Origin: an uncultured Candidatus Saccharibacteria bacterium
GTDB taxonomy: Bacteria; Patescibacteriota; Minisyncoccia; Phycocordibacterales; UBA9973
Reading direction: 5' to 3'
DNA length: 64,000 nt
Assembly: GCA_964482735.1 (NCBI GenBank)
Contig: CAYZYV010000003.1
Location: 63,097 to 127,096, forward strand
Of this stretch, positions 14,206 to 59,426 are shown piece by piece. Below the pieces are notes generated by a model. It made no database searches. It was not told the DNA's origin and saw only the letters and a list, made by a program, of their open reading frames with translations. Every line of letters begins with the position of its first letter. Position 1 is the stretch's first letter. Position numbers and translations under genes: made by a program.

Positions 14206-14811
14206 GTGAAAAAAGAATTTCTAAAATCTAATAAAGCATTTACCCAGATAGTAGATTTTGATGAAGTTTCGATTACATCGAAACGTTCTAAAGAACCATC
14301 ATCAAAATTCACTACGGGGTTCACCCTAATTGAACTTCTGGTTGTTATTGCTATTATTGGAATACTTTCTTCGGTAGTTATAGCTTCGTTGGGAAGTGCT
14401 AGAGATAAAGGAAATGACACTAAAAGAAAAGCTGATTTACATCAAATACAAAATGCCCTTGAGTTATATTATAGCGAGTGTGGAACTTTTTTGGTTGCTC
14501 CAAGTTGTAATGGAACACCCTATGGTGGAGATTGGAGTGGAATTTTTGGTGGTTGGTTTAATGTTAATTATGGGACTGGAGCGGTATCTCAAGGATTAAT
14601 CACTTTAGGTTTGGTTGGTGGTGAAATTAAAGAACCATCCAATGTTGCAAATAAAAGATATATGATATCTTTAAATAAGGATCACTATACAATTTGGGCG
14701 ACACTTTCATCCCCGTCTTCACAAGATTTAAGTACTCTTAATAAATGCTACTTCAGTAATTGGGACAATTATGCAGGGGCCAGCTATCAGAATTATTGCC
14801 TTAGTAACTAA
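14206..14811 (+). CDS. Type IV pilin-like protein (prepilin motif G|FTLIELLVVIAIIGIL) with a long N-terminal leader
   Basis: KFTTGFTLIELLVVIAIIGILSSVVIAS. ~38-aa region precedes the cleavage-site Gly. Confidence 0.7.
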   Translation: MKKEFLKSNKAFTQIVDFDEVSITSKRSKEPSSKFTTGFTLIELLVVIAIIGILSSVVIASLGSARDKGNDTKRKADLHQIQNALELYYSECGTFLVAPSCNGTPYGGDWSGIFGGWFNVNYGTGAVSQGLITLGLVGGEIKEPSNVANKRYMISLNKDHYTIWATLSSPSSQDLSTLNKCYFSNWDNYAGASYQNYCLSN

Positions 14812-27183: not shown

Positions 27184-27891
27184 ATGGAAAACACAGAACA
27201 TCATCACGAACCAAATGATTGGAAAAAATATACGATAGTCTTATTTATAACGCTTACGATTTTTATATCTGGACTATGGTTTTCAAATCATTTAAATAGC
27301 AAGAAAATAGCTCAGTTGAAATCTATAGAAAGTACGATATCTTTAGACTTGCTTTCTTCTGAAGTGCAGTATTCGTTGCTTGAGGAACAGTCTTGTAAAG
27401 ATATTTCAAACTCAGTTCTATCCAAAGAGTTGAACTCATTAGCAGATAAAATTTCTTACAGTGAAAGTAATATCGGAGTAGACAACACTGATGTAGTTAG
27501 TCTAAAGAAATACTATTCTCTACTAGAGATTAAAGATTATCTTTTAATGAAAAAGATAACAGAGAGATGTGGAGAGAAATCTATTTTTGTTCTCTATTTC
27601 TATAAAAATGACAACTGTGAAGAATGTACTAAACAAGGATATGTATTAACTACCTTAAGAGAAAAATATCCTAACTTACGCGTATATTCTTTTGACTACA
27701 AACTAGATAATCCTGCAATTAAGGCTATGATTTCTATATATAAAGTTCCAGATAATCTCCCAGCCTTGGTTATTAATGGTAAGGTTCATAGTGGATTTAA
27801 GAGTATAGAAGAAATAGAAAAGACCTTTCCTGAACTTGAAAAAAGCGCCAAAGATACATCTTCTAAGGTGAAGACAACAACTAAAAAATAA
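27184..27891 (+). CDS. Membrane-anchored thioredoxin-like protein with a CEEC motif
   Basis: N-terminal TM. YFYKNDNCEECTKQGY...LPALVINGKVHSGF resembles a Trx/Grx fold with a CxxC. Confidence 0.45.
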   Translation: MENTEHHHEPNDWKKYTIVLFITLTIFISGLWFSNHLNSKKIAQLKSIESTISLDLLSSEVQYSLLEEQSCKDISNSVLSKELNSLADKISYSESNIGVDNTDVVSLKKYYSLLEIKDYLLMKKITERCGEKSIFVLYFYKNDNCEECTKQGYVLTTLREKYPNLRVYSFDYKLDNPAIKAMISIYKVPDNLPALVINGKVHSGFKSIEEIEKTFPELEKSAKDTSSKVKTTTKK

Positions 27892-31870: not shown

Positions 31871-32917
31871 ATGTTAAAAAAATTTTACAGAATGTTTTCT
31901 AATGATATCGGAATTGACCTAGGGACAGCAAATACTCTAGTTTATTTGAGAGGTCATGGAATAGTAATAAGTGAACCTTCTGTAGTGGTAGTAAATCAAA
32001 AAACAGGTCAAATCGTGGCTGTAGGGAATGAAGCAAAACAAATGCTAGGACGTACTCCTGGACATATTAGAGCCGTGAGACCAATTGTAGATGGTGTTAT
32101 TTCGGATTTTGAAGTAACAGAAGAAATGATTACTTATCTAATAAATAAAACAGAAAAAATTTCTAAAAAAATTATTCACCCTCGAGTAGTGGTTGGAGTT
32201 CCTACTGGGATTACCAATGTTGAAATCAGAGCGGTAGAAGATGCGGCTAGATCTGCAGGGGCTAGAGAAGTTTATATAGTAGAGGAACCAATGGCTGCAG
32301 CAATTGGGATAAGATTGCCGGTAAAAGAAGCCGTAGGATCAGTGATAGTTGATATTGGAGGAGGAACGACGGATGTTGCTGTAATATCACTTTCTGGAGT
32401 TGTTTGTTCAAAGAATATAAAAGTAGCGGGGGATCTTTTAAACTCTGACATTGCCAATTACATGAAGGACGAGTTTAAACTTCTTATCGGAGAAAGGACA
32501 GCAGAAAACGTAAAAATTGCGATAGGAACAGTAATAGAAAGTGAACCAATGGAAGCTGAAGTTCGGGGTAGAGATTTGGTTACAGGATTGCCTCGACAAG
32601 TTATTGTCACAGATTCTGATATAAGAGAAGCTATCATGCCTTCAATTATGACACTGCTCGATGGAATAAAAGAAGTTCTTGAAACAACACCACCTGAATT
32701 ATTGTCTGATATTATCAATCGAGGTTTGGTATTGTCTGGTGGGGGAGCACTTATAAGAGGATTTGATGTTTTGTTGAGAAATACACTTAAAATACCTGTT
32801 TATTCAGCAGAAGATCCATTAACAGCCGTAGCGAGAGGTGCTGGAATAATTTTAGATGACTTTGATTCGTATAAGGAAGTATTGTTAAACACAGATGATG
32901 CTCAAGTACCAAGATAA
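31871..32917 (+). CDS. mreB: Rod shape-determining actin homologue MreB
   Basis: GIDLGTANTLVY...DIGGGTTDVAVISL actin-fold motifs. Confidence 0.9.
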   Translation: MLKKFYRMFSNDIGIDLGTANTLVYLRGHGIVISEPSVVVVNQKTGQIVAVGNEAKQMLGRTPGHIRAVRPIVDGVISDFEVTEEMITYLINKTEKISKKIIHPRVVVGVPTGITNVEIRAVEDAARSAGAREVYIVEEPMAAAIGIRLPVKEAVGSVIVDIGGGTTDVAVISLSGVVCSKNIKVAGDLLNSDIANYMKDEFKLLIGERTAENVKIAIGTVIESEPMEAEVRGRDLVTGLPRQVIVTDSDIREAIMPSIMTLLDGIKEVLETTPPELLSDIINRGLVLSGGGALIRGFDVLLRNTLKIPVYSAEDPLTAVARGAGIILDDFDSYKEVLLNTDDAQVPR

Positions 32918-33692
32918 AAATAAAATAAGAAAAAATAAAAAATCTATTACCGGTATAATAGTTTTGGTTTTATTTTTCTTAGTTACAGCTTTGGGTGCAT
33001 GGAGTTTTATCCGTGGCCCTATTAATTTTGTTAGTCGTCCGTTTTTAATGATTGGTGACTGGTTTTCTCGTGGTTTTAATAATATAGAATTTTATTTTGA
33101 TTCAAAAAAAGAATTGTCCAATCAAAATGTTTTACTAAATGAAGAAAACTTATCTCTAAAAGCTAAACTAGAAGATTATTCAATTTTGGAAAATGAAAAT
33201 GAAGAATTAAAAAATATCTTAAATAGAACTAAAAAAATAAATAATTATGTGCTTGCTAATATCTTAACTAAACCAAACCGTTCTTTGTACGATTCAGTAA
33301 TTTTGGATATAGGTAAAAAGGATAGTTTAGAGATAGGGGATATGGCCTATGCTTATGGAGAAATTCCAGTAGGAAAAATATCCGAAGTCTATGAAAATTC
33401 ATCTCTCCTAACCTTTTTCTCAAGTCCTGGATTGAAAACAGAAGGTTTTATTAATGAAGTAAACGCAACCATTGAATTGGTGGGTAGAGGGGGAGGTAAT
33501 TTTGAAGCAATAATTCCTGTAGACTTGAGCCTAGAAAAAGACACCATTATTTATTTTCCAGAATACAATTCTCAGGTTTTAGCTAAAATAGTTGAAACAA
33601 TTTCTAATCCTAGTGACCCATTTAAAAAAGTAATTTTAGTATCTCCTGTAAGTTTAGAAAGTTTAAAATGGGTTCAAGTTAAGACGGAGTAG
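32895..33692 (+). CDS. mreC: Rod shape-determining protein MreC (probable)
   Basis: N-terminal TM, coiled-coil, C-terminal beta-rich domain; overlaps mreB by 23 nt. Confidence 0.6.
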   Translation: MMLKYQDKNKIRKNKKSITGIIVLVLFFLVTALGAWSFIRGPINFVSRPFLMIGDWFSRGFNNIEFYFDSKKELSNQNVLLNEENLSLKAKLEDYSILENENEELKNILNRTKKINNYVLANILTKPNRSLYDSVILDIGKKDSLEIGDMAYAYGEIPVGKISEVYENSSLLTFFSSPGLKTEGFINEVNATIELVGRGGGNFEAIIPVDLSLEKDTIIYFPEYNSQVLAKIVETISNPSDPFKKVILVSPVSLESLKWVQVKTE

Positions 33693-33704
33693 TAGAAATA
33701 TATC

Positions 33705-36700
33705 ATGAATTATATAGAACAAATTCAAAAGTATTATAAAGATGAGAATAGTAGTGAGATGTCATACAGGACACCTTTTCAAAATTTTCTAGAAAGTATT
33801 TTTACGAAAGAGGATAAATATTTTGTTCAACATGACCAAAAAGCGATAGATGGTAATAAGCCAGATTTTATTATTTTGAAAAACAATATTCCTGTTTTAT
33901 ATATAGAAGTTAAAAAAGTAGGAGAAGATTTAGATAAAATAGAGAAGTCAAACCAAGCTGATAGATACTTCGGATATGACAACTTGATAATTAGTGATTA
34001 TATAAATTTTCGATTTTATAGATATGGGAAAAGATATGAAGAGGAAATTTCACTTGGTAAACTAAATAAAAATGAAAAAAGTATAGAAGAAGGGAATAAA
34101 GAAGAAGTACTTATTAAAACTATTCTAGATTTTACCAATTCTCATAAAGAGGAGATTAAATCAGGACGACACTTAGCAGAAATAATGGGTGGTAAAGCTC
34201 TTCGTATAAGGGAGAATATTTTTTACATGCTTTCATCTCAGAGTGATAGATTTGAAGAGTTGAATAAAATTAAAGAAGTTGTTAAGGAAAATCTTATTAG
34301 TAATATTTCTGATGAAGATTTTGCTGATATGTATTCTCAAACCCTCGTTTATGGTCTTTTTGCTTCTAGATATAATGACAAAACTGAAGATACTTTTTCT
34401 AGACATGAAGCGATAGATTTAGCACCAAAGACAAACCCATTTCTTAAAAAGTTTTTTGGACATATTGCAGGCGAATCTTTTCCAGACAGGCTTCGCTTTA
34501 TTGTGGATGAGCTTTGCGAGGTTTTTTCTCATGCGGATGTTCATAAACTTCTTACGGATTTCTATGGAAAAGAGAAGGACAATAAGGATCCAATTATTCA
34601 TTTTTACGAAGATTTCTTGAAAGAATATGACAGTAAAAAGAAAATGGATATGGGCGTTTTCTATACCCCGAAGCCAGTTGTGGATTTTATAATTCGTGGA
34701 GTTGATTATATTTTAAAAAATGATTTTAGCTTATCTGATGGTTTGGTAAGCAAAGAGAAAATAAAATTGGAGAAAAAGATAATAGACGAGAAAACTGGTA
34801 AAGATAAAAAAATTGAAGAAGAATATCACAAAGTCCAAATCTTAGATATAGCCACAGGTACAGGGACTTTCTTAAACGAAACAATTTCTTTTATTTATAA
34901 TTCTTTTAAAGAAAAAGGACAGCTTGGCGGGTGGGATAGTTATGTAAATGAACATTTACTTCCACGACTTCACGGTTTTGAAATAATGATGGCTTCCTAT
35001 ACTATCGCTCACTTGAAGCTTGGAATGACTTTAGAAGATACAGGTATAGATACAGATAAACTAAATAAAAGATTAGGGGTTTATCTTACTAATACCCTTG
35101 AAGAAGCGAAAGATTATTCTAACCAAGGGACACTTTTTGGTTTTATGGACTCTATTGCTGAAGAAGCAAAAAGTGCTTCAAAGATAAAGAAAGAATATCC
35201 AATAATGTGTGTGATAGGCAATCCTCCTTATTCTATTTCTTCACAGAACAAAGGTGAATGGATTTTAAAATTGATAGATGATTATAAAAAAGATTTAAAT
35301 GAAAAGAAAATAAATATAGATGATGATTATATAAAGTTTATTCGTTTTGGACAATATATGGTAGATAAAAATGGAGGAGGAATTCTTGCATATATTTCTA
35401 ATAATTCTTTTATTTCTGGTGTTACTCACAGGAAGATGCGTGAATCTTTATTAAAATCTTTTGATAAAATTTATGTTTTAGATTTACATGGGAATGCTAG
35501 ATTAAAGGAAGTTTGTCCAGATGGAAGCAAAGACCAAAATGTTTTTGATATTATGCAAGGAGTCTCTATAAATATTTTTGTTAAAAGTGAAAATAAAAAA
35601 GAAGGACTTGGAAAAGTTTATCATAGAGATTTATATGGGAATAGAAAAGATAAATTTGAATTTTTATTTAATACAAAATTTGAAGATACAAAATGGAAAG
35701 AATTAGAATACTTTGAGCCTTATTATTTCTTTGTACCCAAAGATTTTGGACTAAAAGATGAATATGATAAAGGATTTAAAATAGATGATTTTTTTATGGA
35801 ATATAATTCTGGAATTCAAACAAAAAGAGATGACTTAGCAATTTCTTTTGAAAAAAAAGAAATGGATATCAAAATTAATGATATTTTAAATTTAAACAGC
35901 CTAGAACTTAAATACAAATACAAATTACCAGAAGATGGGAGAGATTGGAAAATTGATTGGGCAAAAAAGGATTTAAAAATTGACTATCAAATAATAAATA
36001 TTTTATATAGGCCATTTGACATAAGATATGTTGCATACACGAGAAGATCTAAGGGCTTGATTGCATACCCAAGAGAAAAAATAAATCAATATATTGTTAA
36101 TAAAGATAATTTATCATTGTTAACTTGCAGAAATCAAGATTTTAATGATATTTGTTTGATAACAGATAAAATTTCTGATCTTAGGACATATTCTAATCCA
36201 GGGTCGCTTGGAACTGATTATGTTTTTCCTCTTTGTCTTTATAAAAATCAAGAAAAAATTCCAAACTTAAATAAAGAAATTTGGGGGAAAATAAATGAGG
36301 AAGTTGGGGAAACCACACCAGAAAACATTTTGGATTATATTTATGCTGTTTTACATAGCCCCAAATACAGAGAAAAATACAAAGAATTTTTGAAAATTGA
36401 TTTTCCGCGAGTTCCTTATCCAGAAGGCAAAGAAAAATTTTGGAATTTGGTAAAAATTGGCGAGAAATTACGAGGCTTACATTTGATGATAGATAAATCT
36501 ATTAGTGATTTTATCACTACTTATGCTGTGTTGGGTAACAACTTGGTAGATAAAATTTCTTATAAAGATGGAAATGTTTATATAAACAAAGATCAGTATT
36601 TTGGAAATGTTCCCGAAATTGCTTGGAATTTCTACATAGGTGGTTATCAGCCAGCTCAAAAATATCTTAAAGATAGAAAAGGTAGAATTCTCACAAGTGA

Positions 36701-36782
36701 CGAAATAGAACACTATCAGAAAATCATAAAAGTTCTCGTTGAGACGGATAAAATAATGAGGGGAATAGATAAAATAAGATAA
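33705..36782 (+). CDS. MmeI-family Type IIL (IIG) restriction-modification enzyme: PD-ExK endonuclease, gamma-class N6-adenine methyltransferase and target-recognition domain in one polypeptide
   Basis: The N-terminus KPDFIILKNNIPVLYIEVKKVGEDLDKIEKSNQADRYF parallels the MmeI D...EXK nuclease and DLDKA...DYF region. Methyltransferase motif I ILDIATGTGTFL and motif IV VIGNPPYS. 1025 aa. Confidence 0.8.
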   Translation: MNYIEQIQKYYKDENSSEMSYRTPFQNFLESIFTKEDKYFVQHDQKAIDGNKPDFIILKNNIPVLYIEVKKVGEDLDKIEKSNQADRYFGYDNLIISDYINFRFYRYGKRYEEEISLGKLNKNEKSIEEGNKEEVLIKTILDFTNSHKEEIKSGRHLAEIMGGKALRIRENIFYMLSSQSDRFEELNKIKEVVKENLISNISDEDFADMYSQTLVYGLFASRYNDKTEDTFSRHEAIDLAPKTNPFLKKFFGHIAGESFPDRLRFIVDELCEVFSHADVHKLLTDFYGKEKDNKDPIIHFYEDFLKEYDSKKKMDMGVFYTPKPVVDFIIRGVDYILKNDFSLSDGLVSKEKIKLEKKIIDEKTGKDKKIEEEYHKVQILDIATGTGTFLNETISFIYNSFKEKGQLGGWDSYVNEHLLPRLHGFEIMMASYTIAHLKLGMTLEDTGIDTDKLNKRLGVYLTNTLEEAKDYSNQGTLFGFMDSIAEEAKSASKIKKEYPIMCVIGNPPYSISSQNKGEWILKLIDDYKKDLNEKKINIDDDYIKFIRFGQYMVDKNGGGILAYISNNSFISGVTHRKMRESLLKSFDKIYVLDLHGNARLKEVCPDGSKDQNVFDIMQGVSINIFVKSENKKEGLGKVYHRDLYGNRKDKFEFLFNTKFEDTKWKELEYFEPYYFFVPKDFGLKDEYDKGFKIDDFFMEYNSGIQTKRDDLAISFEKKEMDIKINDILNLNSLELKYKYKLPEDGRDWKIDWAKKDLKIDYQIINILYRPFDIRYVAYTRRSKGLIAYPREKINQYIVNKDNLSLLTCRNQDFNDICLITDKISDLRTYSNPGSLGTDYVFPLCLYKNQEKIPNLNKEIWGKINEEVGETTPENILDYIYAVLHSPKYREKYKEFLKIDFPRVPYPEGKEKFWNLVKIGEKLRGLHLMIDKSISDFITTYAVLGNNLVDKISYKDGNVYINKDQYFGNVPEIAWNFYIGGYQPAQKYLKDRKGRILTSDEIEHYQKIIKVLVETDKIMRGIDKIR

Positions 36783-36785
36783 TTT

Positions 36786-37358
36786 ATGGAAGAAAATAAA
36801 CAAAAAATTGTATATGTGTTTATTGATGCTTCAAACCTTTGGCAAGCACAAAAAGTAAAAGGTAGATTATTTGATTTTGAAAAACTTAAATTTTATTTAA
36901 AGAAAAATTTTAATGCATTAGAATTTCAAGTATTTTATTACACAGCTTATCCCAAAGAAGGAACTAGGGAAAACAGTCAAGATGGAAAACATAAATTTTT
37001 TACTTATCTAAAAAAGGGTTTAGGTTTTATTGTTAGAAAAAAAGAATTAAAGAGAATTGTAGAACATAACGAGCAGGGAGACATAATACAAGAAAAAGGA
37101 AATATGGATGTTGAGATGACAATAGATGCAATCCATTTTTGTAAAAAATACGATATTGCTGTTTTGTTTACGGGAGATTCTGACTTTTTAGCATTGGTGA
37201 ATTATATAAGAAATGGAAGTAAGAAAGTTTTTATATTTTCGTCTAAAAACAATGTATCTCAAGAGCTGAGGACTGGAGGAGATGGATATTTTGATGTATT
37301 AGATATAAAAGAAGATATATGGGGGAGAGAACTAAAACATAGAGATGATAAATCTTAA
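36786..37358 (+). CDS. NYN-domain (LabA-like, PIN-fold) nuclease
   Basis: VYVFIDASNLW...AVLFTGDSDFLALVNYIR...KVFIFS matches the NYN/PF01936 pattern. Starts 4 nt after the RM gene stop. Confidence 0.75.
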   Translation: MEENKQKIVYVFIDASNLWQAQKVKGRLFDFEKLKFYLKKNFNALEFQVFYYTAYPKEGTRENSQDGKHKFFTYLKKGLGFIVRKKELKRIVEHNEQGDIIQEKGNMDVEMTIDAIHFCKKYDIAVLFTGDSDFLALVNYIRNGSKKVFIFSSKNNVSQELRTGGDGYFDVLDIKEDIWGRELKHRDDKS

Positions 37359-49125: not shown

Positions 49126-49366
49126 CTAAAACCTTTTCGTCAAAAAGTTTTGTCTAGGCACCAGCTCGTCTGTTTTTTGAGACAGTTATGGAATGCTTTG
49201 CATGCTAAAACCATGTGTGTCACAAGTCACTAAATATTTTGCTCCAGGTATTCGCAAAATATGTAAGTGCTCGCGACCCCAGCTCGGCAATTTTTCTGCT
49301 GAAAAATTATGCCTGTGCTTTCCACAAGCTAAAAGCCTCCAGCAGTGGAGGCTTTCTTAACGCTTG

Positions 49367-49439
49367 TGGACCCTACAGGACTCGAACCTGCCACCCCCTC
49401 ATTGCAAATGAGGTGCTCTACCAGATGAGCTAAGGGCCC
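49367..49439 (-). tRNA. tRNA-Ala (anticodon UGC) with G3:U70
   Basis: gggccct/agggtcc acceptor with the G3-U70 identity pair, anticodon stem cctca/tgagg, loop tt-tgc-aa, T-loop ttcgagt. Confidence 0.85.
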
Positions 49440-49610
49440 ATATTCTTTTTTAATCTACTTTGCCTTTAGTTTATACTGTTGCTTCCATGAAGCGCTACAG
49501 ATGAGCTAAGGGCCTATAAAACATAATCTTGAAACACTATTATATTAACTTATTTTAAAAAAATTGCAAGTAAAATTAACTATTTTCCTTTAAAATGATA
49601 CAATGTTGCT

Positions 49611-50978
49611 ATGCCATTAAACAAAGGAAATAAAATACAAACCGTTAAGTATTCTCCTCCTCCTCCAAATCTTCCAATGCTTGGGAAGGTAGATCCTAGC
49701 CAAGCTGTTTTTATTGGAAGAACAAATTATGTAGCAGCCTTGGAAGAAAAGAGGTTTGTTTTTGGTATTAATCAAAACGATAGAAGACGTCATGTTTATA
49801 TTGTAGGTAAATCTGGGGTAGGTAAATCAAAATTAGAAGAAGTAATGATTCGTCAGGATATTGCTTATGGCAGAGGTGTATGTGTTATCGATCCGTACGG
49901 AGAATTAGTAGAAGAGATATTAAATTTTATTCCTAAAAATAGAGTAAATGATGTTTGTATCTTTAATCCTGAAGATGTTAATTTTCCTGCATCCTTTAAT
50001 CCATTTTCAAGGGTAGAACCGACATTCAGACACCAATTTACTCAAAGTATCGTAGAAATTTTACAGAAACAATTTGGAAATGATTGGAGTCCTAGAATAG
50101 AGCATGTGATTCGTTTTTCAGTATTAGCTTTGCTTGATTGTGAAAATTCAAACATGCGAGGGATGATTCGTATTTTGATTGATAAAAAATATCGAGAAAA
50201 GGTTATAGATAATATAAAAGACGACATGGTTCGTCATTTCTGGAAAGAAGAGTTTGAAGAGTGGTCTAAGAAGTTTGATTCTGAAGTAATAATTCCTATC
50301 GTGAACAAGTTGTGGCAATTTCTTTCTAACCCGATGCTTACCAACATATTTGGTCAAAAGGAAAACAAAATAGATTTTGAAAAAATAATGAATAATAAAA
50401 AAATTATTCTTGTTAACTTAGCTAAGGATAAAATCGGAGATGAAAATGCTTCATTCTTGGGTGCCTTGTTTATGACAAAAATTAGACAAGCAGGTATGTC
50501 TCGAGCAAAGTTGAATCCTTCAGAAAAGAATGATTTTTATCTTTATATTGATGAATTTAATAATATAATAACTGATGGTTTTGAAAACATTTTATCTGAG
50601 TCTAGAAAATATGGAATTAATTTAACTATTGCCCATCAATATATCGGTCAATTGTCTCAAAAAATAGAACAAGCAGTTTTAGGTAATATAGGAACTATAA
50701 TTTTGTTTAGGGTTGGGGGAGACGATGCTACCAAGTTGCGATCTGAATTCGCTCCTATTTTTGATGTTAAAGATATGATTAATTTAGGAACAGGAGAGTT
50801 TTACATTAAGATGATAATAAATGGTGAAAGTTATGACCCATTTTCATCAGAAACCTTAGAAGTTTTACCGACACCACACACATCTTTTAGAGAAGAAGTT
50901 TTAGGTTCTTCTAGAAGATTCTATGCTACCACAGAAGAAAACGCTTCTAAAATTATGGCTGAAGATGAATCTTCTTAA
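49611..50978 (+). CDS. Soluble FtsK/HerA-superfamily P-loop ATPase resembling T4SS coupling-protein (VirD4/TraG/TrwB) DNA-binding ATPase domains; paralogue 1
   Basis: Walker A VYIVGKSGVGKS, Walker B LYIDEFNNI, arginine finger and sensor SESRKYGINLTIAHQY. No TM segments. Confidence 0.55.
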   Translation: MPLNKGNKIQTVKYSPPPPNLPMLGKVDPSQAVFIGRTNYVAALEEKRFVFGINQNDRRRHVYIVGKSGVGKSKLEEVMIRQDIAYGRGVCVIDPYGELVEEILNFIPKNRVNDVCIFNPEDVNFPASFNPFSRVEPTFRHQFTQSIVEILQKQFGNDWSPRIEHVIRFSVLALLDCENSNMRGMIRILIDKKYREKVIDNIKDDMVRHFWKEEFEEWSKKFDSEVIIPIVNKLWQFLSNPMLTNIFGQKENKIDFEKIMNNKKIILVNLAKDKIGDENASFLGALFMTKIRQAGMSRAKLNPSEKNDFYLYIDEFNNIITDGFENILSESRKYGINLTIAHQYIGQLSQKIEQAVLGNIGTIILFRVGGDDATKLRSEFAPIFDVKDMINLGTGEFYIKMIINGESYDPFSSETLEVLPTPHTSFREEVLGSSRRFYATTEENASKIMAEDESS

Positions 50979-51026
50979 AATAAAGCTTTTTAGTTTGTTT
51001 TAAATAAGGTATAATAAAAGTAATTT

Positions 51027-53111
51027 ATGGATAACGAAATTCCTAATAATAAAGATATCACTTATTTTGCGAAGACTAATTTTCGTAATACAAATACTGT
51101 TTTTGGAATAAAAAGAAAAGATCGTCGTCAGCACATGTATGTCCTCGGTAAATCTGGTACCGGTAAATCTGTTTTGTTGCATAATTTAATAACTCAAAAC
51201 ATTAAAAATGGAGAGGGCGTTTGTGTAATAGATCCTCACGGAGAACTTGCTGAAGAAATACTAGAATTGATACCAGAAAATCGCATAAAAGATGTTATTT
51301 ATTTTAACCCGGCAGATCCTGATTTTCATATAGGTTTTAACGTTCTACAGATTGATGACCCTAAGCTTAAGCACTTAGTTGCTTCTGGTATTATGGGTAT
51401 TTTTACTAAAATTTGGGCAAATGCTTGGAGCTCTCGTATGGAGTACATTTTAAACAATGCTATTTTGGCCCTCTTAGATACGCCAGGAACTACACTTTTG
51501 GGGATACCTCGTCTTTTAGTCGATAAAGAGTATCGTCAAATGATTATAGGCAATCTAAAAGATCCAATTGTTAAATCTTTTTGGTTGCACGAATACGAGG
51601 AATGGAGAGACCAATTTAGAAATGAAGCGATTGCCCCTATTCAAAATAAAGTTGGACAATTTTTGTCTACTTCTATCATTAGAAATGTGGTTGGTCAATC
51701 AAAATCAACAATTGATATCTTCAAAATAATGAACGAAGGTAAAATCTTTATTGTTAATGTTTCAAAAGGAAGAATAGGGGAAGATAACTCAGCTTTGCTT
51801 GGAGGTATGATTATTACCAAGCTTCAATTGGCAGCTATGGAGAGAGTTCGTATTCCTGAAAACGAGAGAAGAGATTTCTATCTTTATGTTGATGAATTTC
51901 AGAACTTTGCTACTGAATCTTTTGCCAACATTCTTTCTGAAGCGAGAAAGTATCGTTTAAATTTAATTATTGCTCACCAATATATAGCTCAAATAGCAAA
52001 CTCTGAAGGTTCCAAAGTTTCTGATGCAGTTTTTGGTAACGTTGGAACAATGATTATTTTTAGAGTAGGAGCAGAAGATGCCCAGTTTTTGGAAAAAGAA
52101 TTTGAACCAGAATTTACAGCTCAAGACTTGGTTAGCTTACCAAATTACAATATCTATTTGAAATTAATGGTAGATGGTGTAACTAGTCGTCCTTTTTCAG
52201 CAATAACTTTACCACCAATGGTTTCTGTTGATCCTGACAATGATACTAAAGAAAGAATCATAGAGTCCTCAAGGGTCTTGTATGCACGATCACGAACCGA
52301 AGTAGAATCAGAGATAACCAAATGGAGTACCACTCTTCAGACAAACGAAGGTGAAGCTAAATATAAAGTAGAGTGTACAAACTGTAAAAAGCAAACTACT
52401 GTTCCTTTTGAACCAAAGGAAGGAAAACCCGTTTACTGCAAGGAGTGTTTAATAAAAATAAAAAGCGGGGAGTTAAAACCAGAAAAAGGATTTTTTGTAC
52501 CAAAGACCAACAATCAAGAAAATAAAGAAGCTGTAGCTTCTCTCGCTTCTTTAGGTATAGAATTCAAATCAGATATTAATCATAATAACAGAGATAATTT
52601 TTCTAGAAGACAAGAACAAAAAACAAACCCAGATCACAATCAACCAAAAAATAGTCATTCTTTTAATCCAAAAGAAAATCCAAGAAATAATAATGATTTT
52701 GAAAGAAGAAAAAGTTCTGGGCCATCACCACTTCTTCGTGGTTTGTTGGAAAAAATAAAATCAGGACAAGTTTCAGAGATAAAAGAAGAAAAAATAGATC
52801 TAGTAGAAGAGAAAGTAAAAACACCTGAACCTGTTTCTTTAGCTACTCTTAAATCAGATAATCCTAGCGATAAAAACACAATGATTTCAACTAAAGAAAT
52901 TTCAGATGCTCATTTATCGACCTTGAAAGACGCTTTAAGTAAAATCACAGACAAGCAAAACTCATTTGATAACTCAAAAAAAGAGCCAATTCAAAATAAT
53001 ACTGAAGTAAAGGCCGAAGATAATCAAAACGACACCTCTGCCCCTTCGTGGCAAAACAAAAAAACTGTCAAAGAAGTCCCCGAAGAAGTATTGAGAAAAG
53101 TTCTAGAATAA
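51027..53111 (+). CDS. Paralogue 2 of the same ATPase family, with a C-terminal CxxC...CxxC zinc ribbon and a ~230-aa low-complexity (N/K/E-rich) tail
   Basis: MYVLGKSGTGKS, LYVDEFQNF, SEARKYRLNLIIAHQY; ECTNCKKQ...CKEC. Confidence 0.55.
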   Translation: MDNEIPNNKDITYFAKTNFRNTNTVFGIKRKDRRQHMYVLGKSGTGKSVLLHNLITQNIKNGEGVCVIDPHGELAEEILELIPENRIKDVIYFNPADPDFHIGFNVLQIDDPKLKHLVASGIMGIFTKIWANAWSSRMEYILNNAILALLDTPGTTLLGIPRLLVDKEYRQMIIGNLKDPIVKSFWLHEYEEWRDQFRNEAIAPIQNKVGQFLSTSIIRNVVGQSKSTIDIFKIMNEGKIFIVNVSKGRIGEDNSALLGGMIITKLQLAAMERVRIPENERRDFYLYVDEFQNFATESFANILSEARKYRLNLIIAHQYIAQIANSEGSKVSDAVFGNVGTMIIFRVGAEDAQFLEKEFEPEFTAQDLVSLPNYNIYLKLMVDGVTSRPFSAITLPPMVSVDPDNDTKERIIESSRVLYARSRTEVESEITKWSTTLQTNEGEAKYKVECTNCKKQTTVPFEPKEGKPVYCKECLIKIKSGELKPEKGFFVPKTNNQENKEAVASLASLGIEFKSDINHNNRDNFSRRQEQKTNPDHNQPKNSHSFNPKENPRNNNDFERRKSSGPSPLLRGLLEKIKSGQVSEIKEEKIDLVEEKVKTPEPVSLATLKSDNPSDKNTMISTKEISDAHLSTLKDALSKITDKQNSFDNSKKEPIQNNTEVKAEDNQNDTSAPSWQNKKTVKEVPEEVLRKVLE

Positions 53112-53114
53112 TAT

Positions 53115-54545
53115 ATGGGCAAGATTATCAAAAAAACACTTTTTATTCTCCCAATAATAGTGTTTTTTGTTTTTGGAGTAAAAGAAGCTTTTGCTAAGAT
53201 AGTTATAAATGAAATACAAATAGCGCCTACCGTAGATCGTTTTGTTGAGTTATACAATGATTCTGGATCAGAAGTAGATTTGACCGGACACTATCTCCAA
53301 AGGAAGACAAATACAAGCGAAAAATATACTTCTTTTGTTACAAGTACAAAATTGGCTGGTAAGAAAATATCTGCCAATGGATTATTCTTGATATCTAAAG
53401 AATCTCTTGGGTTAGAATCTTTAACTATAACAGAAAATAATTCTATTCAACTAAAAAACAGTAAACAGGAAATTGTTTATAAAATCGGATTAGGGGATTC
53501 TGATGATTGTGGAAATATCTGCATTTCTAATCCCGAAGACGGTAAAAGTGTTCAAAGGGTGAATGATAATGAATGGATAATGGGCAGCCCGACACCGGGA
53601 GACGATAATATAAGAGAAGAGCAGGAAAATAATGGAGAAAGTGAAGAAGAAAGTTCTTCTAGTTATTCAGGAAAAAGTGAAAAAGAAAAAATAGTTTTGA
53701 ACCCTTCAATAGCTACCAAAATAATTTCCCCTAAGGTTGTAGTTGCAGGTGTCCCGTTCGTTATCAATCACAATACTATAGGTTATAAAAACGAGAAGAT
53801 TATACACGATCGTTTTGTTTGGAATTTTGGAGATGGTAATTTTAAAGAAATGGATCCATGTTTACCTTTTAGTTATACTTATCAATATCCTGGAGATTAT
53901 GTCTTAAGCCTGTCTTACTATGAGACAACTTTTAGTGAAATACCTGAGGCGACAGATAGGCTAAATATAAAAGTTATCCCTTCTGGTATAAAAATTTCTT
54001 CGATTGGAGGCATTGAAGATCCTTATGTCGAATTAGAAAACAGTTCCAGTCATGAAATGGTTTTAAACAAATGGTCCATAGTAGGAGATGGACATATATT
54101 TACAATACCTGACGGAACCACTATTTTACCAAATAAAAAAATAAAATTTTCATCAAAAACGACCGGTTTTAAATTAGAAAATTTAATGCATCTAAAAATA
54201 ATTGATACTGAGGGTACTCTATTTGCAACATACCCTAAATTTGAAAATTTTAAAATAAATAAAAATGTTTCTAATTCTAAAAATACTCAATCTCAAGAAA
54301 AAGTCATTGAAAATAAGCAGGGTGTAACTTTTGATAAAGAAGAAAAAGTCGTTAACCTCAACTCTCTTTCTTCTTCTGCTTATAACTCAAATAGACGAGA
54401 CGACAAAATAATCTTTTATTTTGGGCTATTTTTGGTGGTAGCTTTGGGTGTAATGGCTATTATAACTATCAAAAAATCGGATAATGGTAAAAACAGAGAA
54501 CTAGAAGAAGAATTAAGTGCCAAAGATTTCAAAATCACAGAATAA
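53115..54545 (+). CDS. Secreted, C-terminally membrane-anchored surface protein with two lamin-tail (LTD) domains flanking a PKD-like domain
   Basis: Signal peptide. LTD: VINEIQIAPTVDRFVELYNDSGSEVDLTGHYL and a second PYVELENSSSHEMVLNKWSI. PKD: WNFGDGNF...YTYQYPGDYVLSL. C-terminal TM: LFLVVALGVMAIITI. Confidence 0.65.
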   Translation: MGKIIKKTLFILPIIVFFVFGVKEAFAKIVINEIQIAPTVDRFVELYNDSGSEVDLTGHYLQRKTNTSEKYTSFVTSTKLAGKKISANGLFLISKESLGLESLTITENNSIQLKNSKQEIVYKIGLGDSDDCGNICISNPEDGKSVQRVNDNEWIMGSPTPGDDNIREEQENNGESEEESSSSYSGKSEKEKIVLNPSIATKIISPKVVVAGVPFVINHNTIGYKNEKIIHDRFVWNFGDGNFKEMDPCLPFSYTYQYPGDYVLSLSYYETTFSEIPEATDRLNIKVIPSGIKISSIGGIEDPYVELENSSSHEMVLNKWSIVGDGHIFTIPDGTTILPNKKIKFSSKTTGFKLENLMHLKIIDTEGTLFATYPKFENFKINKNVSNSKNTQSQEKVIENKQGVTFDKEEKVVNLNSLSSSAYNSNRRDDKIIFYFGLFLVVALGVMAIITIKKSDNGKNRELEEELSAKDFKITE

Positions 54546-56246: not shown

Positions 56247-56735
56247 TTATTCAATAAAATTTAATATTTTTTCTGGAGACGAAACATTATTATCTACAAA
56301 ATCGTTAATTTTTTGCCAATCCTTAAACAAAAATTTGTTAGGATTTTGAGTTTCGATTTTTAGTGGAATTTCAATATAAGAATCTGCTTGTATTTCTCTA
56401 GGGACTATATAGTTACCTTTTTCTATATCCATATCTTTAGTATTTTCTAAAATTGAAGCATCATAATTTTTCAAATCAGCTAATGGTATTCTAATTGTAA
56501 TTATTGAACCATTTGTTGATCTTGTTTTAATGTAATTCTTTAAATCTTGTATATTATCAGTAAACCAATTTCCTATAATTTCTTTTTTTGAGACTACATT
56601 TTCACGTTTTTCATCATATTCAGTATTCGGGGTATCATAACGATATAAAGAAGTATACTCATTATTATGATAGAGTTGTTTTAATTTTTCTTTTCTTTCA
56701 AATTTATTATTTAACTGTAGGTTTTCTAATGACAT
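56247..56735 (-). CDS. Hypothetical protein (162 aa), the only ORF between tRNA-Trp and its downstream direct repeat
   Basis: No recognisable motifs; not hydrophobic. Confidence 0.4.
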   Translation of the reverse strand: MSLENLQLNNKFERKEKLKQLYHNNEYTSLYRYDTPNTEYDEKRENVVSKKEIIGNWFTDNIQDLKNYIKTRSTNGSIITIRIPLADLKNYDASILENTKDMDIEKGNYIVPREIQADSYIEIPLKIETQNPNKFLFKDWQKINDFVDNNVSSPEKILNFIE

Positions 56736-57826: not shown

Positions 57827-58519
57827 ATGAAAACACCATTCGTTTTCTTGTCTGGTTTAGTAGTCTTATTGGCAATTATTATTATATACGATAACCCAAT
57901 AACGGGTAGAGAAAAGGGGCAAATTAAACCTTTTATAGATAAAGAGACAACTATTATAGGGGATTTTGTTGAATTAGATTTTTCACAATCTGATTTTGTG
58001 GTTCGCACCGAGAACGGAAAACTTTATCAAATAACAGGAGATAAATTACAAGAAATTATAACCCTTAATAATGTTCAGAGTATTAACAAGATAGAAGTTA
58101 CAGGAAAGTTATTTAGTCGGAAGGTGACAACCTTTGGTGCTAGAGACTCTGCTGAATTTATGATAGATGCAACCTCATACAAAATTCTTGGTTATAAAAA
58201 CAATAAAATCGAAGAACCGTTTGTGCCCAAAATAGTTACAGTACAGGGTTCCCTTATTAGATTACAGCACCCTTTTTGTTGTTTTTCTATTAGACTTGAA
58301 GACGATGGAGATTATGAGATGGAGGAGTATTTATTAGAGGGTGATAAGATACAAGGAATTCTTCTCTCCCTTGATTCTTTTGATAGTATAGATGAAATAA
58401 AAGTTACAGGGTTGTTATCTGAAGAAAAAAGAAGAATTCCTGAGGCTGGTGGTTTTGCTGATTGGAAAACAAAAGTAATTAACGTAACTTCTTTTGAAAT
58501 TATCAGTTATAAAGAATAA
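57827..58519 (+). CDS. Hypothetical membrane-anchored (N-terminal TM) protein
   Basis: N-terminal TM; beta-rich remainder; no motif recognised. Confidence 0.4.
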   Translation: MKTPFVFLSGLVVLLAIIIIYDNPITGREKGQIKPFIDKETTIIGDFVELDFSQSDFVVRTENGKLYQITGDKLQEIITLNNVQSINKIEVTGKLFSRKVTTFGARDSAEFMIDATSYKILGYKNNKIEEPFVPKIVTVQGSLIRLQHPFCCFSIRLEDDGDYEMEEYLLEGDKIQGILLSLDSFDSIDEIKVTGLLSEEKRRIPEAGGFADWKTKVINVTSFEIISYKE

Positions 58520-58898: not shown

Positions 58899-59426
58899 TT
58901 GTTTATGAAAAATAATTTTAAAAAGAAAATTATAATCGTAAACGACTTGATGCAAAAGAATTATCGGTACGAATTATCTGAACCAGAAGGCAGGAATTTT
59001 GACAAGGATTTCAAACCCGATCTAACTCCTAAACAAATGTTAGCGCTGGGTGTTTTTGGTGGAAAGTATATGACAGATTGTAAAAAAGAATTTCCTAAAG
59101 AATGGTGGGTAAAAACTAAACTTTGTCATGACTTTCATGACCCAAAACTTAATTATTTTGGAGTGAATGCAAGCCAACCACTTAGCGTATGGAGAAAGAA
59201 GGGATGGATTTACAAAGATGATCCAAGGGGTTGGTTCCAGTGGTATTGTAGATATTATATGGGGCGAAGACTAGGCGAAGAAGATAAGAGACAGATAAAA
59301 AGATGGAAAGCCATGAGTAGACACGTTGCTCAAGTTGTCAAAAACTGCCAAGTGGGTGATATTTATTGTCGCAGGGTTCAACGTCAGGCTTTGTTACATT
59401 GGGCGTATGACAGTAGAAAATTTTAA
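58899..59426 (+). CDS. Hypothetical conserved-looking protein (Trp/Cys-rich motifs GWFQWYCRYYMGRR)
   Basis: No family recognised from sequence alone. Confidence 0.35.
   Translation: MFMKNNFKKKIIIVNDLMQKNYRYELSEPEGRNFDKDFKPDLTPKQMLALGVFGGKYMTDCKKEFPKEWWVKTKLCHDFHDPKLNYFGVNASQPLSVWRKKGWIYKDDPRGWFQWYCRYYMGRRLGEEDKRQIKRWKAMSRHVAQVVKNCQVGDIYCRRVQRQALLHWAYDSRKF

Follow-up and report, generated by a model that had tools for sequence, protein, structure and literature searches.

T4CPs (VirD4, TrwB of R388, TraD, TraG) are among the closest described counterparts of the two ATPases analyzed here, Atp1 and Atp2. The Walker A and B motifs and an RKY..HQ signature are common to both, as is the predicted fold, a nucleotide-binding domain into which an all-alpha domain is inserted. 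However, Atp1 and Atp2 lack the N-terminal TM domain of T4CPs, are only ~15-18% identical to TrwB and are encoded on the chromosome among housekeeping genes, with relaxase and T4SS genes absent from the analyzed stretch of DNA (64 kb in full length; hereafter the window). Furthermore, Atp2 carries a treble-clef zinc ribbon, a flexible tail of ~200 aa and a terminal motif, and the partner of the ATPases in relatives is a DUF8128 protein (hereafter M) rather than a relaxosome. Compared with VirB4/TrwK, which are often fused to VirB3, the motor of Atp1 and Atp2 is closer to VirD4/TrwB (AAA_10 scores of 18-19 bits vs 27.5), and most of the genomes considered here have one gene for the N-terminal domain and another for the motor. 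The HerA/FtsK superfamily (HerA-NurA, SIR2-HerA, the DndH C-domain, FtsK/SpoIIIE, EccC/EccE) likewise consists of RecA-like ring ATPases: the DUF87 profile scores above threshold, HerA and the DndH C-domain are the next-best folds for Atp2, and EccE is the second-best fold for M. What sets Atp1 and Atp2 apart is that a corresponding N-terminal domain is lacking, with the P-loop only ~40-65 residues from the N-terminus, and that a NurA, SIR2 or nuclease partner is missing. The product of the third gene of the locus resembles bacterial LTD surface proteins (ExeM, LTD-ComEC fusions) in being secreted or anchored and in containing lamin-tail (Ig-like) domains but lacks a nuclease, phosphatase or channel domain; its layout (LTD, PKD-like, LTD, TM and conserved cytoplasmic tail) is restricted to Paceibacterota, in which about 200 protein clusters show it. 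Extracellular nucleases and some ComEC proteins contain LTD domains.

A considerable part of bacterial diversity belongs to the Patescibacteria, whose genomes are tiny and which rely on host cells. The exchange of material between these bacteria and their hosts is largely unexplained. The passages of Quinonero-Coronel et al. (2025; PMC12102498) on T4CP/VirD4/TraD, LTD/lamin and TrsD report 5,713 VirD4-type homologues in 2,918 Patescibacteria genomes, ~two per genome and nearly all far from virB4 (only 148 are near it), for which the authors do not rule out exaptation, as well as separate TrsD proteins that remotely resemble the VirB4 N-terminus and mostly adjoin virB4. Atp1 and Atp2 very probably are the same genes as these "T4CP homologues", and this count of possibly exapted proteins is all that the searched literature holds on the ATPase pair. 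In the same passages, neither the absence of a TM anchor nor the pairing and fusion with DUF8128 is mentioned, and they are also silent on the zinc ribbon, the tail motifs, the Atp1/Atp2 split and the link to the LTD gene. The missing anchor, the pairing or fusion with DUF8128 in relatives, and the zinc ribbon and putatively tethered peptide of Atp2 make this a defined, testable system.

The locus and its two ATPases

The region of interest (positions 49611-54545 of the window) consists of three genes, encoding Atp1 (49611..50978; 455 aa), Atp2 (51027..53111; 694 aa) and the LTD protein (53115..54545; 476 aa). All three ORFs, and the protein features mapped within them, are on the + strand, and an ORF check confirmed the three genes exactly as given in an earlier note on this DNA. 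The intergenic gaps are 48 bp (Atp1-Atp2) and 3 bp (Atp2-LTD gene), and no convincing internal terminator was found within this stretch. The rest of the window contains housekeeping genes only, and its G+C content is even, the three-gene region matching the surroundings. The region is flanked by tRNA-Ala and tRNA-Leu, and the DNA upstream of the ATPases contains a tRNA gene and no split-off TM exon. A 19-nt partial copy of the 5' end of tRNA-Ala is found at 49494-49518. The 64-kb window contains no detectable integrase, relaxase, VirB4 or VirB6, nor att repeats or atypical base composition that would support an integrative/conjugative element, and the flanks of related loci, like the window, contain neither relaxase nor mating-pair-formation T4SS genes. 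The region is not a mobile element, and the absence of VirB4, VirB6 and relaxase near the ATPases, pointed out in the earlier note, is borne out within the 64-kb window.

Atp1 and Atp2 are paralogues (45% identity over 398 aa, E 5e-129), and motif reading recovers in both the Walker A, Walker B and RKY..(I)AHQY elements that had been noticed at the outset. In Atp1, Walker A (GKSGVGKS, aa 66-73) is encoded at 49806..49829, and the stretch from Walker B (YLYIDEFNN) through the RKYGINLTIAHQY block at 50538..50642; the columns matching this stretch are invariant in the Atp2 family alignment. The corresponding elements of Atp2 are Walker A (GKSGTGKS, aa 41-48; 51147..51170), which aligns with the TrwB P-loop, and the stretch from Walker B (YLYVDEFQN) through the RKYRLNLIIAHQY block (51879..51983), which is also supported by the family and TrwB alignments. 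The P-loop starts at aa 66 in Atp1 and at aa 41 in Atp2, and a 19-residue hydropathy scan found no hydrophobic 19-mer in either protein, in agreement with the original observation that the TM anchor is missing.

Four Pfam profiles score above their gathering cut-offs in both ATPases, namely TrwB_AAD_bind (40.5 bits in Atp1 and 57.9 in Atp2; cut-off 20.5), T4SS-DNA_transf (37.9 and 38.9; cut-off 20.1), TraG-D_C (31.8 and 33.3; cut-off 22) and DUF87 (27.6 and 41.3), which supports the proposed placement in the VirD4/TrwB/TraD family, with the HerA superfamily behind it. Among the profiles named in the earlier note, TrwB_AAD_bind is matched as above, AAA_10 stays below its cut-off (19.5 and 18.1 bits vs 27.5), and the result for HerA is split, with the DUF87 domain above threshold and NCBIfam HerA_antiphage far below (12.9 bits vs 800). 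The lowest NCBIfam E-values were obtained for TraD/VirD4-like families, with scores of 48-74 bits against equivalog cut-offs of 250-650; equivalog level (TraD / VirD4 / CD1115) is not reached (best 74 bits vs 250, and 71.6 vs 366). TrwB was the best match in a PDB sequence search. The AF2 model of Atp2 (aa 1-430; pLDDT 89.8) predicts a TrwB-like fold, in which helices at about aa 112-236 form an all-alpha insertion within the nucleotide-binding domain. The best Foldseek match of this model is TrwBdeltaN70 (E 4e-12, TM 0.63-0.67, ~410 columns aligned), followed by HerA, Cag-beta, DotL and DndH-C, and no VirB4 chain is among the top 50 matches of the Atp2 core. Judging by the 45% identity, Atp1 is likely to adopt the same fold. 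Other class assignments were rejected: for VirB4, AAA_10 is below cut-off and the N-terminal domain is absent from both proteins; for HerA helicase, the N-terminal barrel is missing, and NurA and SIR2 are absent from the window; for FtsK/SpoIIIE, the FtsK_SpoIIIE profile matches Atp2 only, at 16.9 bits vs 24, and a TM segment and gamma domain are lacking.

Comparison of orthologues identifies Atp1 as the counterpart of the Paceibacteria ATPase that is normally encoded 3' of M and a small TM protein, Hp (60-69% identity), although the protein in the window lacks the C-terminal acidic tail present in relatives. The N-terminal KYSPPPPNLPMLG motif of Atp1 (49647..49685) is similar by eye to the C-terminal end of M and to the linker of M-ATPase fusions. 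Atp2 comprises a motor core, a zinc ribbon, a probably disordered tail and a conserved C-terminal motif. The zinc ribbon, a CxxC-x17-CxxC treble clef (aa 446-476; 52362..52454) found in 54 of the 73 complete Atp2 orthologues, matches zf_Tbcl_2 (49 bits vs cut-off 27, E 4e-13) and TIGR04272 (50 bits vs cut-off 36, E 1e-13), so that the zinc ribbon and long tail ascribed to the second ATPase are both confirmed. The 214 aa that follow are K/N/E/S-rich, and the composition of the low-complexity linker (52467..53072) suggests that it is probably disordered; in comparisons that give 82-86% identity for the core, the linker reaches only 37-43%. Orthologue comparison also points to a putative docking peptide at the very end of the protein, EVPEEVLRKVLE-COOH (53073..53108): the motif EVPE[DE]VL[RKQ]K[IV]LE ends Atp2, at most one residue from the C-terminus, in L004, L006-L011, L014, L016, L018 and L019.

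Conservation and probable partners in related genomes

Homologues of Atp1 number in the thousands, the best 120 being at least 65% identical and labelled Paceibacterota, Nomurabacteria or Patescibacteria, and clustering of the ATPase family at 50% leaves 20,936 representatives. Identity of the Atp2 core ranges from 58 to 86% over 80 GTDB species loci, which include Uhr-, Kerfeld-, Moran-, Magasanik-, Doudna- and Buchananbacteria, and housekeeping genes adjoin the ATPase genes in dozens of genomes. Between the window and L006, Atp2 (84% identity) is more conserved than UvrA (75%), UvrC (62%) and Ddl (51%). Identity of ~60-86% across several lineages, in genomes that have shed most functions, implies that Atp1 and Atp2 probably have an important role. 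The T4CP passages of PMC12102498 report that in Ca. Southlakia epibionticum a T4CP homologue, which may or may not be orthologous to Atp1 or Atp2, is non-essential whereas the T4SS genes are essential, which is awkward beside such extreme conservation.

In relatives, the ATPases adjoin M, an uncharacterised membrane protein (Pfam DUF8128) in which a TM hairpin at the N-terminus precedes a VirB4-like cytoplasmic domain. VirB4 is the best fold match of M, and EccE, a membrane subunit of the T7SS, is a weaker second; sequence similarity of M to any PDB chain was not detected. In 42 of 66 loci, the gene for M is the immediate 5' neighbour of the Atp2-type gene, and it is present somewhere in 57 of 80 loci. 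In a survey of 80 metagenome loci centred on M, Hp is 3' of M in 66 of 70 cases, and an ATPase comes next, in the order M-Hp-ATPase, in 61 of 62 (60 of them of the Atp1 type), with median gaps of 3 bp and 10 bp. Moreover, 70 of the 150 best family representatives are fusions of an M domain with the ATPase, and one protein, P0130, is a fusion of M with two ATPases; its gene has a phage-type integrase/HTH_17 pair on one side and, directly downstream, a Replic_Relax gene on the other. The fused proteins have the VirB3/VirB4 domain order, yet a VirD4-type motor. This adjacency and these fusions suggest that M and the ATPases are partners. The earlier statement that VirB-type partners are lacking accordingly holds for the window but not for the family, in which a VirB4-like DUF8128 membrane protein is encoded beside the ATPases or fused to them. 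An HMM built from M found nothing in the window at E <= 10, and Hp and the sigma4/HARE-HTH gene are also absent from the 64 kb; M may be absent from this lineage.

Two further associations are seen in relatives. The gene order SecD, SecF, sigma4/HARE, M, Atp2 is recurrent, SecDF being present in 35 of the 80 Atp2 loci and SecA nearby in 11. Tandem arrays of cysteine-rich ZnP proteins also adjoin the ATPases; the N-terminal zinc ribbon of ZnP is related to that of Atp2, and no signal peptide or TM segment was found in these proteins.

The LTD surface protein

The ORF, Pfam matches, hydropathy and orthologue alignment indicate that the LTD protein is a type I membrane surface protein, in which a signal peptide of the AxA type (AFA-K site) is followed by an LTD, an acidic linker, a PKD-like domain (53712..53984), a second LTD, a TM anchor (aa 432-452, 54408-54470) and a 24-aa cytoplasmic tail, the anchor and the tail together spanning 54408..54542. 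The LTD profile matches two stretches (62.2 bits vs cut-off 34.3) and, together with the signal peptide and the TM segment, upholds the initial description of a secreted, membrane-anchored protein with two LTDs. In the orthologue alignment, the PKD-like domain is the best conserved part of the protein and its WNFGDG motif is conserved; the Pfam matches are sub-threshold (PKD_4 17.2 bits vs 27, PKD 15.1 vs 23.5), and many orthologues list PKD/PKD_4 (PF00801/PF18911) among their precomputed Pfam families. The tail ends with SAKDFKITE-COOH (54516-54542), and the corresponding motif, [ST]A[KD][DN][MFI][KT]I[ILT]E, is present in 4 of 4 full-length orthologues, at an overall identity of ~35%. Neither a nuclease nor a ComEC channel domain was found in the protein, NF033680 matching only the LTD part (16 bits vs 1300). 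The LTD protein probably is a clade-specific, co-transcribed surface accessory and, as such, is of lesser importance than the ATPases.

Possible functions of the motor

Family, fold, conservation, gene linkages and fusions were computed here. The interpretation to which we give roughly even chances is that Atp1 and Atp2 are a domesticated, relaxase-independent hybrid motor of the VirB4/VirD4 type, with DNA as the favoured substrate. The pair would be the duplicated version, as found in Paceibacteria, of a T4CP-like motor that many Patescibacteria lineages encode on the chromosome and that is untied to conjugation genes. By analogy with the family, each ATPase, with its catalytic motifs intact, most likely forms an ATP-driven ring. 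We infer that, in the source organism, M and Hp are encoded outside the 64-kb window and serve to bring Atp1, possibly along with Atp2, to the membrane. The zinc ribbon, flexible tail and C-terminal peptide of Atp2 would serve as a tethered docking or substrate-recruiting arm, and the conserved cytoplasmic tail of the LTD protein may contact the motor. The motor would move DNA or nucleoprotein without a relaxase; this substrate is favoured by family analogy and by a single mobile-element context, because the fused family member P0130 is encoded in an integrative element directly upstream of the Replic_Relax gene. In that case, the CPR genes would descend from a conjugative motor that became domesticated. 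Protein export would fit the SecD/SecF/SecA synteny and the EccE-like fold match equally well.

It appears rather unlikely that the ATPases are ordinary coupling proteins that dock on a VirB4-type T4SS, encoded elsewhere on the chromosome as in many Patescibacteria, and supply it with DNA or effector proteins destined for the host cell. The T4CP Pfam thresholds are passed and the predicted fold is that of TrwB; T4SS loci are widespread in the phylum, T4CP genes often being far from virB4 (T4CP passages of PMC12102498), and a FEMS review lists VirD4-like components within the Patescibacteria T4SS. However, according to the same passages of PMC12102498, only 148 of the 5,713 homologues are near virB4, and Ca. 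S. epibionticum can do without its homologue but not without the T4SS genes; Wang et al. recognised no coupling protein among the products of the essential T4SS cluster; and the ATPases have no TM anchor, with T4SS genes absent from the 64-kb window. The ATPases also have a VirB4-like partner of their own, fused to them in many relatives, which points to a separate membrane complex.

A further reading, which we put forward only tentatively, is that M, Hp, Atp1 and Atp2 form an autonomous, unrecognised envelope translocation machine, a minimal VirB4/VirD4 hybrid without VirB6, VirB8 or relaxase that is central to the lifestyle of Patescibacteria. Such a machine could, for example, move DNA between symbiont and host or import nucleic acid, and surface modules restricted to particular lineages, among them the LTD / PKD-like / LTD protein, would connect to it via their cytoplasmic tails. 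It might also be an extant form that is intermediate between VirB4 and VirD4 proteins. If autonomous, the motor bears on the divergence of VirB4 and VirD4 among the type IV secretion ATPases and on the uptake or delivery of macromolecules by ultra-small symbionts.

Alternatively, a VirB4- or T7SS-like protein motor could extract, assemble or export envelope proteins, with the LTD protein and, elsewhere, the ZnP proteins as clients. The resemblance of M to VirB4 and, more weakly, EccE, the recurrent SecD, SecF, sigma4/HARE, M, Atp2 order (SecDF in 35 of 80 loci, SecA in 11), the ZnP arrays with their Atp2-related zinc ribbon next to the ATPases, the conserved cytoplasmic tail of the LTD protein and the multi-ATPase fusions reminiscent of EccC are all compatible with this possibility. 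We nevertheless regard it as improbable given that the LTD protein carries a Sec-type signal peptide of its own, that no signal peptide, TM segment or sign of export is seen in the ZnP proteins, that the nearest matches of the motor domain are T4CP and HerA proteins, which handle DNA, and that one family member adjoins a relaxase-like gene.

The earlier note had envisaged the trio as a module for DNA uptake or transfer, or for host interaction; in such a self-contained module, the LTD protein would capture extracellular DNA and the soluble ATPases would pull it in. This now seems very improbable. The spacing of the genes (48 and 3 bp, without a convincing internal terminator) is tight and operon-like, and the Atp2-LTD adjacency is seen in 7 of the 8 clade genomes examined, despite ~35% identity of the LTD proteins: the LTD gene starts 1-19 bp after Atp2 in the window, L006, L007, L008, L087 and L089 and is directly downstream in L004. 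However, the adjacency is confined to one Nomurabacteria-like clade that also keeps the neighbouring housekeeping synteny (UDG and MiaA are syntenic in L087 and L089), and it could be mere general synteny among fairly close genomes. The LTD gene is unlinked from Atp2 in L088 and is 3' of Atp2 in only 2 of the 80 GTDB loci, the ATPases being conserved far past its range; since the LTD gene is not co-conserved with the ATPases, the idea of the trio as a conserved module fails outside this clade. A membrane channel and a nuclease are absent from the trio, and nothing in the sequence shows DNA uptake, the sole link of the LTD protein to nucleases being the ExeM match (16 bits vs 1300).

Finally, the notion that the region is a decayed integrative/conjugative element or an anti-phage HerA/mad8-type defence island between tRNA genes is largely refuted and barely tenable: despite the flanking tRNA-Ala and tRNA-Leu, the partial tRNA-Ala copy, the distant fused relative inside an integrative element and weak PADLOC matches to mad8 (E 4e-17) and HerA, integrase, relaxase, replication and effector genes are absent, the PADLOC matches are at the superfamily level only, the G+C content is that of the surroundings, the neighbours are housekeeping genes in dozens of genomes, and Atp2 is better conserved than UvrA.

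Two coupling-protein-type ATPases without a membrane anchor

The genes for the ATPases Atp1 (49611-50978, 455 aa) and Atp2 (51027-53111, 694 aa) and for a surface protein with lamin-tail domains (LTD protein; 53115-54545, 476 aa) lie where the earlier note had placed them, all on the plus strand and separated by gaps of 48 and 3 bp. The motifs that had been read from the sequence by eye are present in both ATPases, namely Walker A (GKSGVGKS in Atp1, GKSGTGKS in Atp2), Walker B (YLYIDEFNN and YLYVDEFQN, respectively) and the RKY..AHQY block, and the proposed paralogy is borne out by 45% identity over 398 residues (E = 5e-129). In profile searches, both proteins score above the gathering thresholds of the Pfam families TrwB_AAD_bind, T4SS-DNA_transf, TraG-D_C and DUF87; the top NCBIfam E-values belong to TraD and VirD4-like families, with scores far under the equivalog cut-offs. 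Neither protein has a hydrophobic segment, and neither has an N-terminal transmembrane (TM) anchor of its own. Atp2 also carries the zinc ribbon and the long tail ascribed to it, the former of the treble-clef type (CxxC-x17-CxxC, residues 446-476) and the latter 214 residues long and rich in K, N, E and S.

AlphaFold modelled residues 1-430 of Atp2 with confidence (pLDDT 89.8, pTM 0.89). The closest solved structure is TrwBdeltaN70, the coupling protein of R388 (E = 4e-12, TM 0.63-0.67, ~410 aligned columns, 15-18% identity), followed by HerA, Cag-beta (a VirD4), DotL and the C-domain of DndH; VirB4 chains are absent among the top 50 structural matches. On these matches, the motor belongs to the VirD4/TrwB type and has the all-alpha insertion as well (helices at ~112-236).

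In the wider group to which the window belongs, the motif EVPE[DE]VL[RKQ]K[IV]LE is found at the C-terminus of Atp2 or at most one residue from it (the C-terminal peptide in the window is EVPEDVLRKILE); in lineages outside this group, Atp2 ends in ..KPG[EQ]x[IV]xF or in a helix of the LxxLRxxLKE type. Atp1 orthologues (488-543 aa) usually possess an acidic C-terminal extension of ~45 residues that ends in EP[LM]I-COOH and also occurs in fusions of the ATPase with the membrane protein M (see below). Comparison of the end of the Atp1 gene (50934-50978) with the related loci L004-L011 shows that this extension is absent from the Atp1 of the window (455 aa) and from its nearest relatives (455-460 aa); what is likely a docking peptide has been lost from Atp1 in the lineage of the window.

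Homologues of Atp1 number in the thousands; the best 120 are all at least 65% identical, their named sources are Paceibacterota, Nomurabacteria or Patescibacteria, and homologues are annotated as 'type IV secretion system DNA-binding domain-containing protein' or 'DUF87 domain-containing protein'. When the representatives of clusters at 50% identity were searched exhaustively, 20,936 members of the ATPase family were found at E <= 0.001, of which 5,237 reach E <= 1e-30. A scan of GTDB with one genome per species yielded >600 matches, the best 80 of which were analysed as loci; across these 80, the identity of the Atp2 core is 58-86%, and the genomes are Paceibacteria-type MAGs and Doudna-, Uhr-, Kerfeld-, Moran-, Magasanik- and Buchananbacteria. 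Between the window and the related locus L006, identity is 84% for the Atp2 core, 75% for UvrA, 69% for TMEM175, 69% for Atp1, 62% for UvrC and 51% for Ddl, and the motor is therefore under very strong purifying selection.

The DUF8128 membrane protein and its operon in relatives

In loci centred on Atp2, the gene directly 5' of Atp2 encodes M, a membrane protein of 420-580 aa with one or two N-terminal TM helices, across a gap of ~0-100 bp. Among the 66 loci in which the sequence extends far enough, 42 have M directly upstream of Atp2, and 57 of 80 loci contain M at some position, a frequent gene order being SecD, SecF, sigma4/HARE-HTH protein, M and Atp2. M matches Pfam PF26449 (DUF8128), and the literature searched mentions neither name. 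As detected by an HMM built from M, 70 of the top 150 representatives of the family have this domain fused to the N-terminus of the ATPase; by eye, the N-terminal motif of Atp1, KYxPPPPxLPxxG, looks like the end of M and the linker of these fusions.

An M-centred scan of metagenome contigs produced 80 loci with the near-invariant order sigma4/HARE-HTH protein, M, Hp (a small TM protein) and an Atp1-type ATPase, after which come Atp2 or arrays of genes for ZnP (cysteine-rich proteins that begin with a zinc ribbon). Hp is next after M in 66 of 70 loci and an ATPase follows within 1.2 kb of M in 61 of 62 (60 of them of the Atp1 type), with median gaps of 3 and 10 bp. The M-linked Atp1 proteins are ~60% identical to the Atp1 of the window, the same level as Atp1 proteins unlinked to M, and therefore belong to one orthologous group. 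The M-linked paralogue in Paceibacteria is Atp1; in the other lineages sampled, M is directly followed by the zinc-ribbon Atp2 type. Within the data covered, which comprised the 64 kb of the window and, for relatives, flanks of 10 kb, purpose-built HMMs for M, Hp, the sigma4/HARE gene and ZnP matched nothing in the window except RpoD region 4, and tblastn with the N-terminal domains of the fused relatives gave no match there.

The AlphaFold model of M (pLDDT 82.5) comprises three long N-terminal helices, including a TM hairpin, followed by an alpha/beta domain. The top 13 Foldseek matches of this model are all chains of the R388 T4SS entries 7o41, 7o42, 7o43, 8rtb and 8rtd, those naming a protein being TrwK/VirB4, and EccE comes next; a profile of M showed no similarity to any chain among PDB sequences. 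Because M has no P-loop, we infer that the match is to the N-terminal domain of VirB4, which M would thus resemble. The fused M-ATPase would then have the VirB3/VirB4 order (TM, N-terminal domain, ATPase) with a motor of the VirD4 type.

Three independent fusions of tandem ATPases were found (P0130, P0135 and P0266). P0130 (1,227 aa), from a high-G+C, apparently non-Patescibacteria relative, consists of a DUF8128-like domain and two ATPase domains. It is encoded within an integrative element (L090:10001-14444, L091:9616-14059), with a phage-type integrase and HTH_17 upstream, Replic_Relax directly downstream and transposases nearby, and this context is the sole direct link of the ATPase subfamily to DNA transfer. 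P0135, the second double-ATPase fusion, has an uninformative context of ankyrin and response-regulator genes, and another fusion, P0128, has housekeeping-gene surroundings.

Several features of the neighbours of M were observed in passing. Hp (~174 aa; e.g., L012:7996-8529, L015:8108-8641 and L026:2896-3459) has a single TM helix at its N-terminus and, at its C-terminus, a conserved domain bearing the motif AIIEAD..LWRAHRxRNxLVHTPGF, in which the Rx4H spacing is like that of the HEPN motif; searches of Pfam and PADLOC returned no match. The ZnP proteins (~570 aa) are encoded in tandem arrays of up to six paralogues adjoining Atp1 or Atp2 (L009-L011, L014, L017, L018, L026, L084 and many of L094-L173; e.g., L009:12255-14012). 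They begin, and often also end, with the treble-clef zinc ribbon CQNCKKDFxIExEDFxFYxKxxVPPPTFCPxCR and contain no TM segment or signal peptide; the only Pfam match, zf_Tbcl, is above the cut-off only in L084. The gene directly 5' of M (L012:5341-6369; seen in 57 of 60 M-centred loci) encodes a protein of ~340-355 aa with an N-terminal Sigma70 region-4 helix-turn-helix and a HARE-HTH domain, which is not a normal sigma factor and may serve the M-Hp-Atp operon as its dedicated regulator.

The surface protein downstream of Atp2

The architecture proposed for the surface protein largely holds: an AxA signal peptide comes first, two LTD stretches (62 bits) flank a central domain, and the protein ends in a TM segment and a cytoplasmic tail of 24 residues. 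The PKD assignment is less firm, in that the central domain contains WNFGDG and PKD is listed for many orthologues, but the window protein itself scores 17 bits against a threshold of 27. Orthologues form ~200 clusters, all of 445-500 aa and all from Paceibacterota. Overall identity among the LTD proteins is only ~35%, but conservation extends to the PKD-like core, the second LTD, the TM segment and the C-terminal motif [ST]A[KD][DN][MFI][KT]I[ILT]E-COOH, which hints at a cytoplasmic contact.

The idea of a conserved Atp1-Atp2-LTD trio does not extend beyond one clade. The LTD gene is downstream of Atp2 in 2 of the 80 GTDB loci (L007 and L008), the other genes in this position being those for MnmA, AlaRS, Pgk, UppP, ZnP and others. 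Of three loci of distant LTD orthologues, L087 and L089 have genes that run Nramp, Atp1, ..., Atp2, LTD (gaps, 8 and 1 bp), and in the third (L088) the LTD gene is unlinked. Atp2-LTD linkage is accordingly found in seven of eight genomes of this clade (the window, L004, L006, L007, L008, L087 and L089, not L088), and nine further contigs, paired by their identical lengths, appear to hold both Atp1 and LTD orthologues. Because UDG and MiaA are likewise syntenic in the LTD-linked genomes, the adjacency by itself is weak evidence of a functional link; the LTD gene is a local neighbour of the ATPases that would encode a clade-specific surface accessory.

Possible function and genomic setting

The family, fold, missing anchor, conservation, and linkage and fusion statistics come directly from computation, and a mechanism can be proposed on this basis. 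Atp1 and Atp2 would be coupling-protein-type ATPases, presumably assembled into rings, that arose by domestication of a conjugative motor and are encoded today by conserved genes of the chromosome. Having no anchor of their own, they would be brought to the membrane by M (and Hp), presumably also in this organism; the zinc ribbon and the tethered C-terminal peptide of Atp2 would recruit a partner or substrate, and the LTD protein may touch the motor via its conserved tail. DNA is the substrate we favour, tentatively and at well below even confidence, on account of the family to which the ATPases belong, the neighbouring Replic_Relax gene and the zinc ribbon. A motor that handles protein fits just as well, given the synteny with SecDF/SecA, the resemblance of M to EccE and the ZnP arrays.

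Another live alternative is that Atp1 and Atp2 are an ordinary T4CP of a Patescibacteria T4SS. Both would work like T4CPs, to which their profiles and fold correspond, but they are devoid of a TM anchor, a relaxase/T4SS context and equivalog-level scores, the three features that usually define coupling proteins. An essential T4SS cluster without a recognisable coupling protein has been described by Wang et al. (PMC10633639). A survey (PMC12102498) gives 5,713 VirD4-type homologues in 2,918 Patescibacteria genomes, just 148 of them near virB4, and reports that the homologue of Ca. Southlakia epibionticum is non-essential and that exaptation 'cannot be ruled out'. Proteins of the Atp1/Atp2 type have thus been reported in bulk, and the portions of the literature retrieved in our searches do not describe their anatomy and partners. 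The description that fits Atp1 and Atp2 best is that of orphan T4CP-like ATPases that lack an anchor and have DUF8128 as their partner.

The window is an ordinary segment of a low-G+C Patescibacteria chromosome, with genes for GyrB, ThrRS, NusB, RNase III, SMC, RNase R, TrmD, RpoB, RpoC, DnaG, RpoD, EF-Ts, S2, ProRS, MreB, TGT, UvrB, UvrA, UvrC, Ddl, a TMEM175 channel and a histidine kinase, and then, in order, tRNA-Ala, the Atp1-Atp2-LTD genes, UDG, tRNA-Leu, tRNA-Trp, MiaA and YchF; metagenome contigs carry the exact Atp1 protein in the same gene order. The VirB-type partners that the earlier note had reported missing are indeed absent locally, with no integrase, relaxase, VirB4 or VirB6 in the 64 kb. 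A mobile element or defence island was rejected in view of the absence of integrase, relaxase and effector genes, the even G+C along the whole window, the housekeeping synteny and PADLOC matches at the superfamily level only. Rfam and tRNA scans of the window detected nothing except four tRNAs, and promoter and terminator scans inside the operon gave no signal above chance.

Some minor features of the window deserve mention. Between tRNA-Ala (49366-49439, minus strand) and Atp1, ~55 bp beyond the tRNA gene, there is a 19-nt near-copy (17/19 identical) of the tRNA-Ala 5' end (49494-49518), which may have been left behind by a tandem tRNA that decayed or by an old rearrangement junction; the genes before Atp1 in relatives are Nramp or M-Hp instead of tRNA-Ala. 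A Type ISP restriction-modification enzyme (N6_Mtase, Eco57I and Type_ISP_C; 1,025 aa), followed by an NYN-domain protein, is encoded between the MreB region and TGT (33705-37358). Two proteins with a prepilin-type N-terminal methylation motif (3881-4714 and 14206-14811) are candidate type IV pilins or pseudopilins, and one of them bears an Lcl domain at its C-terminus; their genes are the sole pilus-related ones of the window. Five ORFs encoding 160-265 aa are without a match in Pfam (27184-27891, 32895-33692, 56247-56735, 57827-58519 and 58899-59426). The longest possible ORF for MiaA shares its 5' end with the ORF at 57827-58519, and translation of MiaA therefore probably starts at a more downstream position; the metagenome gene call gives a MiaA of 303 aa.
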